Source: Caedibacter taeniospiralis
GTDB lineage: Bacteria; Pseudomonadota; Gammaproteobacteria; Francisellales; Francisellaceae
Assembly (NCBI RefSeq): GCF_002803295.2
Contig: NZ_PGGB02000018.1
Location: forward strand, 1 to 7,418
DNA length: 7,418 bases
Reading direction: 5' to 3'
This document shows positions 62 to 1,332 of the stretch, piece by piece. The position numbers and the translations under genes were made by a program. Position 1 is the stretch's first letter, and each line of letters begins with the position of its first letter. Below the pieces are notes generated by a model that had not been told where the DNA came from, made no database searches, and saw nothing but the letters and a program-made list of their open reading frames with translations.

Positions 62-307
62 TTATCCCATCATTTTCATAATACGTTCACAGGCAACAGA
101 AGTGACGGCTTGACCGATTTGATTTAACTGTTGAGAGCTTGATTGAGCATTTTGAATAGCTAAATTAGCGGTTGAAGCAACGCCTTGATACAGCACACCC
201 ATTGCTTGAGCTGGTGCCATACCTATAACATTCATCATATTTGAAGTGACAGAATCGGTCACTTGTGGATTCACATAAAGATTGGGTGTTATTGCATTAT
301 CTGCCAT
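62..307 (-). CDS. rebD: R-body protein RebD-like, the shortest RebB-family paralog (81 aa)
   Basis: The 81 aa ORF contains NPQVTDSVTS...MAPAQAMGVLYQG...LAIQNAQSSSQQ. This aligns with NSQITDSVTQ...MPA...LMQM...LSIQNSVTNQQQ of the two upstream paralogs. It lacks the C-terminal third that they have. The length matches my recollection of C. taeniospiralis RebD. The SD is weak (GAG about 10 nt upstream). Confidence 0.85.
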   Translation of the reverse strand: MADNAITPNLYVNPQVTDSVTSNMMNVIGMAPAQAMGVLYQGVASTANLAIQNAQSSSQQLNQIGQAVTSVACERIMKMMG

Positions 308-340
308 AGTTTGAAGCTCTAGTTAAAATGGATTGATATC

Positions 341-458
341 AAAAAGCAAAATAAAAAAATAAAATAAGGAAAACGATAGCGTTGGGTCAGGAAGTAATAC
401 GTTATGCGTTGAGGAGAAACTCAATAATACAAATCAACGTATACTTCCTAACCCCAGC
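341..458 (-). terminator. Composite hairpin plus U-rich tract in the rebB-rebD spacer: candidate intrinsic terminator or attenuator
   Basis: Arms 458..436 and 403..379 pair on the minus-strand RNA as 13 bp (including one G-U), a 1 nt bulge, then 6 bp, with 2-3 further outer pairs. The 32 nt apical loop holds a nested 5 bp hairpin (424..420 / 413..409). Five nt after the stem comes a long U-rich run (UUUUCCUUAUUUUAUUUUUUUAUUUUGCUUUUU, + coordinates about 341..374). The G-U pair exists only in the minus-sense transcript; on the + strand it is an A-C mismatch. Confidence 0.45.
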
Positions 459-589
459 TTTCTTCCCCCACGAGAACAATTAACCATCTCTGATGATTTT
501 TATCTACTTTAAATGATTTTATTTCGCTTATCATACTTTAATTTAGCCAATTTATCTGATTGGCATTATTTTAGCATATCAAATAAGCA

Positions 590-907
590 TTAACCATTTT
601 TAGCGGCTTTAATAACAGCAAGGGCATCAGTTAAACGGCTTGTGTCATTAGAACGGTTCACTGAACCAATGGCTTGAGCATTAGCTGCCGTGTCAACAGA
701 ATATAGAATACTCATACCTTGAGTGGTTGATGCCTGATGAAGCATATTAGATTGTTGCTGATTGGTTACAGAGTTTTGTATAGATAAGCCAGCAGCTTGT
801 GTTGCCATTTGCATTAAGCTTCCAGTGGTAAACGCAGGCATTTCACCTAATATTTTAGTGTTTGTTTGTGTTACTGAATCTGTAATTTGTGAATTTACAT
901 TACTCAT
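590..907 (-). CDS. rebB: R-body major structural protein RebB (105 aa), RebB / 'killing trait' family
   Basis: The 105 aa ORF starts MSNVNSQITDSVTQTNT, the hallmark N-terminal motif of the RebB family. The SD is AAGGA, 8 nt before the ATG. By hand alignment it shares about 54 of 97 aligned residues with the 114 aa paralog. Length and sequence match my recollection of C. taeniospiralis RebB. Confidence 0.92.
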   Translation of the reverse strand: MSNVNSQITDSVTQTNTKILGEMPAFTTGSLMQMATQAAGLSIQNSVTNQQQSNMLHQASTTQGMSILYSVDTAANAQAIGSVNRSNDTSRLTDALAVIKAAKNG

Positions 908-939
908 TTTTTATTCCTTACTTTGTCTGGGTTTTAAAT

Positions 940-958
940 CGTAAGATTTTATCTTACG
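940..958 (-). promoter_or_regulatory. Perfect 8 bp hairpin (CGTAAGAT-AAA-ATCTTACG on the minus strand) in the 80 nt rebA-rebB spacer
   Basis: Inverted repeat 940..947 / 951..958 with a 3 nt loop. On the sense strand it is followed by AUUUAAAAC, a poor U-tract. A TAAAAT -10-like hexamer overlaps the loop. It could be a weak terminator, an RNA stabiliser, or part of a rebB promoter region. Confidence 0.3.
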
Positions 959-987
959 GTGTTTTATAAATAATCTATTTTTAATAC

Positions 988-1332
988 TTATGCTTTATCA
1001 ACGCCAAGCGCATCAATCAGTCCAGCCATGTCAGTTGAATTGTCAACAGTACTGACTGCTTGACCATCTGAAGCAGCTGAAAGCGTATACATAATAGATA
1101 AGCCTTGAGTGGTTGCTGCATCTGATAGCATATTTGTTTGTTTTTGACCAACAACAGCATTTTGCATTGCTAAACCATTAGCTTGTGCGCTCATTTGCAT
1201 TAAATTTGTCATGATTTGTGCTGGAGTAGAACCAAGAACCATTGTGTTAGTTTGTGTTACTGAATCAGTAATTTGGCTATTTACGATGTCAGTTGTGTTG
1301 CCTACATCAGCAGTAGAAGTAGTAGTCGCCAT
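988..1332 (-). CDS. rebA: R-body protein RebA (114 aa), RebB-family paralog with a Thr-rich N-terminal extension
   Basis: The 114 aa ORF has a strong SD (AAGGAG, 7 nt before the ATG). After a 17 aa extension (MATTTSTADVGNTTDIV) it carries NSQITDSVTQTNT, identical to RebB. The length matches my recollection of C. taeniospiralis RebA. Confidence 0.9.
   Translation of the reverse strand: MATTTSTADVGNTTDIVNSQITDSVTQTNTMVLGSTPAQIMTNLMQMSAQANGLAMQNAVVGQKQTNMLSDAATTQGLSIMYTLSAASDGQAVSTVDNSTDMAGLIDALGVDKA

Follow-up and report, generated by a model that had tools for sequence, protein, structure and literature searches.

What do three small, consecutive genes at the left end of a Caedibacter taeniospiralis contig encode, and are they the whole of the system to which they belong? 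We analysed the first 7,418 nucleotides (nt) of contig NZ_PGGB02000018.1 (hereafter the window), all genes of which lie on the minus strand and in which a first-pass annotation had read the three genes as the rebA-rebB-rebD part of a refractile body (R-body) locus. R-bodies are ribbons that are rolled at neutral pH and extend reversibly below about pH 6.5 to a needle of roughly 20 µm (PMC3583457; bioRxiv 10.1101/029587; PMC7297999; bioRxiv 10.64898/2026.05.21.725848). Their pH-dependent extension breaks membranes (bioRxiv 10.1101/029587), and they are needed for killing, yet are not toxic in themselves (PMC3583457). The analyses described below identify window 1-1445 as the type-51 R-body (reb) locus of the C. 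taeniospiralis plasmid pKAP51, a reading to which we assign a probability of about 0.97, and nothing that we found contradicts its identification as an R-body locus.

The three genes encode RebA, RebB and RebD

The open reading frame (ORF) listing of the window gave precisely the three minus-strand genes, of 114, 105 and 81 amino acids (aa), that the first-pass annotation had described (Table 1). Alignment of their products showed the N-terminal motif VN(S/P)Q(I/V)TDSVT to be common to all three, as had been noted, and the N-terminus quoted for RebB, MSNVNSQITDSVTQ, was right. The core motif LMQM...GL(A/S)(M/I)QN, which had likewise been ascribed to all three, was found in the 114- and 105-aa proteins but not in the 81-aa protein, where the corresponding residues are LYQG...NLAIQN. 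RebA was 55% identical to RebB and 39% identical to RebD, with 21 invariant columns in the three-protein alignment.

Table 1. Coordinates of features in the window (position 1 is the first letter of the 7,418-nt stretch).
Feature	Position	Strand	Description
rebC 5' end	1..53	minus	first 17 codons + 2 nt of 114-codon gene; remainder past left edge
rebD	62..307	minus	81 aa, ATG start; short RebB-family paralogue, minor incorporated component needed for roll formation
rebB-rebD spacer	308..589	minus	282 nt, non-coding, strongly folding; core hairpin about 375-470
rebB	590..907	minus	105 aa, ATG start; major R-body structural subunit
palindromic hairpin	938..960		10-bp stem (terminator scan), in 80-nt rebA-rebB spacer
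rebA	988..1332	minus	114 aa, ATG start; major R-body structural subunit
rebA upstream region	1333..1445	minus	promoter-like hexamers TTTATA-17-TATGAT at 1428-1400, candidate only
250-aa orphan gene	1446..2198	minus	directly upstream of rebA
tail-type protein	6800-7418	minus	C-terminal ~205 residues of 506-aa protein, Gp10_C E = 2e-6; exits at right edge

In the comparison with Pfam, all three proteins matched RebB ('Killing trait'), whose accession, PF11747, the first-pass annotation had given correctly. The rebB product matched with an expectation value (E) of 1e-24 (87 bits) and covered the whole 68-position model, while the rebA and rebD products matched with E = 6e-22 (78 bits) and E = 9e-16 (58 bits), respectively. 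Since all three scores are well over the gathering cut-off of 24 bits, the resemblance is not due to chance. The occurrence of three paralogues of 81-114 aa on one strand within 1.3 kb also fits the habit of RebB proteins, which are small (about 70-130 aa) and clustered.

Comparison with the RebA, RebB and RebD proteins of C. taeniospiralis revealed residue-for-residue identity in all three cases. RebA is an exact match to Q6TFI1/AAR87077, RebD to Q6TFI3/AAR87075, and RebB to Q46365/AAA73405/AAA73409, the last of which is the same in plasmids pKAP47, pKAP116 and pKAP298. The gene order A-B-D, the assignment to the type-51 pKAP locus and the remark that the locus was already described rather than new were likewise right. 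The reb locus is textbook material, having been sequenced in 1994, 2005 and 2018-2020, and is in use as a synthetic-biology actuator.

RebA, RebB and RebD of the window are identical to proteins that gave R-bodies when expressed in E. coli. Plasmids pKAP47 and pKAP116, whose reb loci (Heruth et al. 1994; AAA73404-AAA73410) represent the same type-51 system and were expressed in E. coli, share an identical RebB and 113 of the 114 RebA residues. The sole difference is at RebA residue 53, a glycine in pKAP298 and pKAP51 and an alanine in pKAP47 and pKAP116; this residue sits within the conserved (N/A)GLAMQN core. Mutations that affect the pH response cluster in the RebA C-terminus, a region that controls extension (bioRxiv 10.1101/029587). 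The Reb proteins are reported to have an alpha-helical architecture (Date et al. 2026, bioRxiv 10.64898/2026.05.21.725848), and the AlphaFold2 model of RebB, which is all-helical with one long helix (predicted local distance difference test score, pLDDT, 74; predicted template modelling score, pTM, 0.27), agrees with the attenuated total reflectance Fourier-transform infrared (ATR-FTIR) data of that study.

A fourth gene, rebC, completes the locus

While the first-pass annotation described the three paralogues correctly, it took them for the locus and overlooked a fourth gene, rebC, such that the machine was under-described. The rebC ATG is located at window position 53 on the minus strand, 8 nt past the rebD stop, and the ORF exits at the left edge of the window. 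The flank beyond this edge was read from the pKAP298 record: joined to the end of this circular record, rebC is a 114-aa ORF that finishes at record position 48821 (pKAP298 49112-48821). Its product is an exact match to Q6TFI4/AAR87131/WP_011178482, which is named 'RebC' and recorded on a 41,651-bp contig. The number WP_011178482 comes next after the last coding sequence (CDS) accession of the pKAP298 record, and WP_011178482.1, with 114 aa, is the protein listed as ctRebC in the supplement of Date et al. 2026.

That study found that RebD is incorporated as a minor subunit, nucleates an ordered lamellar intermediate and is essential to roll formation, that RebC acts as an assembly factor without being incorporated and steers assembly away from beta-sheet aggregation, and that the full set of four Reb proteins is needed for reversible, pH-driven extension (bioRxiv 10.64898/2026.05.21.725848). 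The functional locus consists of four genes in the order rebA-rebB-rebD-rebC. rebC is complete on the replicon and is represented within the window by codons 1-17 only; since it is cut after codon 17, the window by itself should not yield functional R-bodies. The downstream flank that the first-pass annotation had included for expression in E. coli is indeed needed, as rebC lies mostly beyond the left edge.

Other locations and relationships were considered for rebC and rejected. The 282-nt gap between rebB and rebD has no ORF >36 codons in any frame, and its three short ORFs are not present in the protein collection. RebC is not a divergent RebB-family member, having no Pfam match at E <= 10 and an hhalign probability of 0.2% against RebA, RebB and RebD. 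The AlphaFold2 model of RebC is a two-helix hairpin (pLDDT 76, pTM 0.56), and a fold search with this model returned generic helical hairpins only, none at E <= 0.001.

In contrast with the 114-aa RebC described here, the 1994 records of pKAP47 and pKAP116 give a RebC of 56 aa (Q57487, AAA73406/AAA73410) that consists of RebC residues 1-55, one differing residue and a stop. Because all relatives keep a RebC of 111-117 aa with a conserved C-terminal half, the comparison indicates that the 56-aa RebC is a frameshifted form of a conserved ~114-aa protein, probably arising from a sequencing error in 1994 or representing a strain-specific allele.

The replicon is pKAP51 in its uninterrupted state

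The nucleotide comparison with pKAP298 proposed by the first-pass annotation showed 99.9% identity between window 1-5590 and pKAP298 (NC_005915.1) 1-5591, where the annotation of all three genes reads 'RebB family R body protein', and 100% identity between window 5584-7418 and pKAP298 13334-15168. Over the reb locus of pKAP298 (NC_005915.1 / AY422720; Jeblick & Kusch 2005), the DNA is identical throughout window 1-1368, and the RebA, RebB, RebD and RebC proteins, their order and strand and the flanking genes are all the same. Only three differences were found in 5.6 kb, at window 1369, 3150 and 4961. The first, a 1-nt deletion relative to pKAP298, is the sole indel and is located in the leader/promoter region upstream of rebA. 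The other two, each a single G/A change, fall within the 660-aa and 458-aa genes, respectively, whose proteins carry accessions WP_100550342/43 here and WP_011178430/31 in pKAP298.

A segment of 7,742 bp with Tn3-family transposase and recombinase genes, present in pKAP298 between the 458-aa and 378-aa genes, is missing from the window. In pKAP298, this insertion has terminal inverted repeats of ~36 bp (GGGTCTCCATAAAGATTTGGG...) and a target duplication, GTCATT(G), and window 5584-5590 is the empty target site of this Tn3-family transposon, Tn5403, between the start of the 458-aa gene (5583) and the stop of the 378-aa gene (5608). Strain 51K has been reported to carry pKAP51 (41.65 kb), which differs from pKAP298 mainly in having no Tn5403 (PMC7297999, PMC5773718). 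The exact RebA, RebB and RebD variants occur on a 41,651-bp contig, in line with the published size of pKAP51. Since Tn5403 is absent and the size agrees with PMC7297999, the replicon is pKAP51 of strain 51K in its uninterrupted state rather than pKAP298 itself.

Relatives of the reb cassette and a conserved fifth ORF

In a comparison of RebA with 185,579 species genomes, identity to its best relatives was 44-56% across most of the protein, rising to 62% in a single segment of 60 residues, and these relatives were distributed over many phyla. The 79 loci related by RebA gave 388-425 tblastn matches, with multiple RebB-family copies per locus, and no RebC-like or upstream-pKAP-like protein is encoded at any of them. 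A search of 5.8 billion proteins with RebC returned two relatives, and five with E <= 1e-10 emerged when 1.84 billion representatives were searched exhaustively with a profile; the search with RebB found proteins of 69-76% identity.

A Caedibacter-type cassette was found at L084-86 (ENA metagenomes), L087, L088, L089, L090 (TARA), L091-93 and L094-96, with the same genes of the same sizes, rebA-rebB-rebD-rebC-orfX, in each context. Identities to the window and pKAP proteins were 47-73% for RebA, 59-76% for RebB, 65-81% for RebD, 45-51% for RebC and 31-43% for orfX. Although these uncultured cassettes resemble the pKAP locus in order and gene sizes, they differ in having rebB-rebD spacers of 35-76 nt, unrelated backbones and other downstream genes (F-box/leucine-rich repeat (LRR), GH18-domain or phage structural genes). 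In six related cassettes, RebD was at least as conserved as RebB, which fits the new functional data and speaks against the earlier notion of a dispensable RebD. RebC has been stated to be without homologues outside C. taeniospiralis (PMC3583457). Contrary to this claim, these sequence matches indicate that the RebC family extends beyond Caedibacter, with at least six uncultured lineages carrying the cassette.

The fifth ORF, orfX, is small, and its start either overlaps the rebC stop or abuts it. In pKAP298 it encodes 95 aa on the minus strand (48524-48811), beyond the left edge of the window, and its relatives are located at L084 1373-1690, L087 1911-2225, L089 3818-4144, L091 9351-9692 and L094 1616-1852. 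The products are 78-113 aa long and coiled-coil-like, and are homologous to that of the pKAP298 gene (31-43% identity, E down to 1.5e-19), sharing the conserved core F-x-R-L-x-x-S-(F/L)-L-(S/T)-L. orfX lies outside the named rebABCD set, and it is present in every complete Caedibacter-type cassette. One may speculate that it would serve the R-body, for example in payload loading or regulation.

The genes beyond the cassette vary. Downstream of the L084 cassette (1896-4999) are genes for an LRR protein of 555 aa, whose F-box match is marginal (19.4 bits vs a cut-off of 20.5), and then a 477-aa orphan, while the gene downstream of the L089 cassette (4149-7337) encodes at least 1063 aa, including a GH18 chitinase domain (E = 2e-25). 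The genes directly past these two cassettes look eukaryote- or environment-directed. Speculatively, the variable flanking genes could be the place to seek the killer toxin, the candidates being the F-box/LRR protein of L084, the GH18 protein of L089 and, on pKAP plasmids, the 250- and 252-aa paralogues and the 378-, 458- and 660-aa orphans described below.

A tentative extension of these comparisons, which we consider possible rather than probable, is that the R-body determinant takes the form of a mobile cassette of five genes that phage-derived elements carry in several uncultured bacteria, probably associated with eukaryotes, and that orfX would work with the R-body and the variable flanks would hold the toxin. 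The comparative results narrow where the killer toxin and accessory factors might be encoded. Modestly new in this analysis are RebC beyond Caedibacter, the conserved fifth ORF, the recurring phage contexts and the resolution of the discrepancy between the 56- and 114-aa forms of RebC.

L087 is a 3-kb scaffold, LSMT01003179.1, of the Stylophora pistillata coral assembly GCA_002571385.2; it is bacterial and bears a complete five-gene reb cassette at 515-2225. This cassette has been merged into a spliced 'coral' gene model, AWC38_SpisGene25193, in which RebA-like and RebC-like parts are fused.

Two better-characterised systems differ from the pKAP locus to a greater extent. The reb cluster of Pseudomonas aeruginosa PA14 (rebP1, rebP2, rebD, rapA) makes extendable, sodium dodecyl sulphate (SDS)-insoluble R-bodies that are involved in host damage (Wang et al. 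2021). Like the pKAP locus, it combines RebB-family subunits with a short paralogue of the RebD group; unlike it, the subunits belong to another phylogenetic group (RebP), the accessory protein is RapA with no RebC homologue present, and the cluster is chromosomal and regulated by RcgA/FecI2. The reb operon of Azorhizobium caulinodans (AZC_3781-3788) similarly combines several RebB-family genes with an essential, non-homologous gene, AZC_3784, whose product is thought to be assembly-related and thus analogous to RebC. However, AZC_3784 has no sequence relationship to RebC, and the operon is chromosomal and repressed by PraR through RebR.

Spacers and expression signals of the reb genes

The spacer between rebB and rebD contains a long imperfect hairpin with a core stem of roughly 20 bp, followed by a U-rich tract. 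The minimum free energy of the spacer was -74.5 kcal/mol, compared to -51.6 +/- 4.6 kcal/mol for shuffled sequences (z = -5.0), and the core alone gave z = -4.7. The spacer is single-copy in pKAP298 and its other plasmid matches are at chance level only, which rules out a repeated mobile element, and no Rfam family matched in the reb region, such that a known RNA was also rejected.

In six related cassettes, the equivalent spacer is only 35-76 nt long, and its hairpin z-scores were -2.7 for L084, -3.7 for the mutually homologous L087 and L090, -1.8 for L091, -0.45 for L089 and +0.56 for L094. The idea that the hairpin is a universal feature was thus borne out only in part, the hairpin being significant in L084, L087 and L090 but not in L091, L089 or L094, and so recurrent rather than universal. 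The spacer probably separates expression of rebA-rebB from that of rebD-rebC; a terminator with an internal promoter, an mRNA-stability element and an insertion relic are candidates for what it represents, and the long Caedibacter spacer is only partly explained.

The spacer between rebA and rebB folds with z = -2.5, and its palindromic hairpin, which is absent from the shorter A-B spacers of relatives, is of uncertain significance. Strong Shine-Dalgarno sequences precede rebA (AAGGAG at 1339-1344) and rebB (AAGGA at 915-919), whereas rebD has no clear Shine-Dalgarno sequence and rebC no strong one. The difference fits the roles of the products as major and minor components. Together with the structured rebB-rebD spacer, these Shine-Dalgarno strengths would cause the major subunits to be expressed highly and the minor components weakly, while rebD, rebC (8-nt gap) and the next ORF (9-nt gap) would be expressed together.

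Phage context and alternative readings of the locus

Several points limit the reading of window 1-1445 as the R-body locus of pKAP51, though none contradicts it. Its transcription signals are at consensus level only, with the promoter scan yielding 9 matches where 10.2 were expected, i.e., chance level; only 3-4 of six independent lineages have a strong rebB-rebD hairpin; rebC is truncated within the window; and a structure search found no solved structure of any Reb protein. Beyond these points, three other readings have to be weighed, the first of which arises from the phage-like surroundings of the cassette.

The ORF at 6800-7418, listed as 202 aa, is in fact part of a 506-aa phage tail/baseplate-type protein. 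The gene table of PLSDB, which is incomplete, shows no CDS there in pKAP298. Past the 506-aa tail gene lie capsid and adaptor genes and, in pKAP298, also a terminase gene. Related cassettes have comparable neighbours: at L088, the gene directly upstream of the rebA-like gene encodes a protein homologous to the 506-aa tail protein (31% identity, E = 7e-22), the L089 cassette follows Phage_Wedge1, the L091 cassette comes directly after terminase and portal/Mu-F genes, and the L094 cassette is near RecT. A phage-database search with the window returned no match. On sequence grounds, these recurring contexts support the published idea of a phage-derived plasmid, and the reb cassette may be a mobile module carried by phage-derived elements, whose variable flanks may, speculatively, carry payloads. 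The reb identification fixes the reading of the whole window as pKAP51, with a phage-derived structural module that ends in the reb cassette.

The reb cassette could thus be primarily a phage late-gene module, serving for example host-cell disruption or particle release, with Paramecium killing as a secondary effect. The window cassette closes a same-strand run of capsid, adaptor and Gp10_C tail genes, the L091, L089 and L088 cassettes follow terminase/portal, Phage_Wedge1 and tail-protein genes, and R-body production has been tied to phage-like particles and to ultraviolet (UV)/mitomycin induction (PMC7297999). However, Reb homologues in most bacteria are chromosomal with no prophage signature (PMC3583457), no experiment links R-bodies to phage release, and the killer phenotype depends on R-bodies, such that we regard this origin of the cassette's function as unlikely, though deserving the most weight among the alternatives.

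In the reading that we favour, which follows the literature, the phagosome of a sensitive Paramecium that has ingested the bacterium acidifies below about pH 6.5, upon which the roll telescopes about 50-fold to a needle of roughly 20 µm. The extended needle ruptures the bacterium and the phagosome membrane and releases the long-sought toxin.

It is highly improbable that the three RebB-family paralogues (62-1332) are sufficient alone, with rebC as a negligible accessory regulator. A RebC homologue is indeed missing from most reb clusters of other bacteria, and older literature gave RebC a regulatory role (PMC3583457). In contrast, RebC knock-outs lose rolls and aggregate, and pH actuation needs all four proteins (bioRxiv 10.64898/2026.05.21.725848); as cited in PMC3583457, Heruth 1994 found RebA, RebB and RebC to be sufficient and RebC to be required; and RebC is kept at 45-51% identity in every Caedibacter-type cassette. 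The sufficiency of the three paralogues is therefore already largely refuted. The last alternative, that an endosymbiont plasmid here carries a decaying copy of the locus that no longer functions, can be given almost no weight, since, although endosymbiont genomes decay and the plasmid bears transposons and orphan genes, all ORFs are intact and identical to sequences from which E. coli made R-bodies, and 51K is a killer strain in whose expression and codon-usage analysis rebA, rebB and rebD were singled out (PMC7297999).

Orphan genes between the tail gene and rebA

Four orphan genes, encoding proteins of 378, 458, 660 and 250 aa, lie between the tail gene and rebA; they received no family assignment in our scans and have no counterpart at related loci. 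The 250-aa neighbour of rebA was considered as a possible toxin or defence protein and rejected as an identifiable one, having no Pfam, NCBIfam or PADLOC family and no homologue outside Caedibacter among 5.8 billion proteins. There is also no evidence for an R-body role of this gene, which none of the related cassettes contains. The 250-aa protein and the product of a 252-aa gene at pKAP298 47257-48015 are paralogues (35% identity, E = 2e-42), the motif DHHVGMYG...GLARL being common to both, and the two paralogous genes bracket the reb cassette on the same strand.

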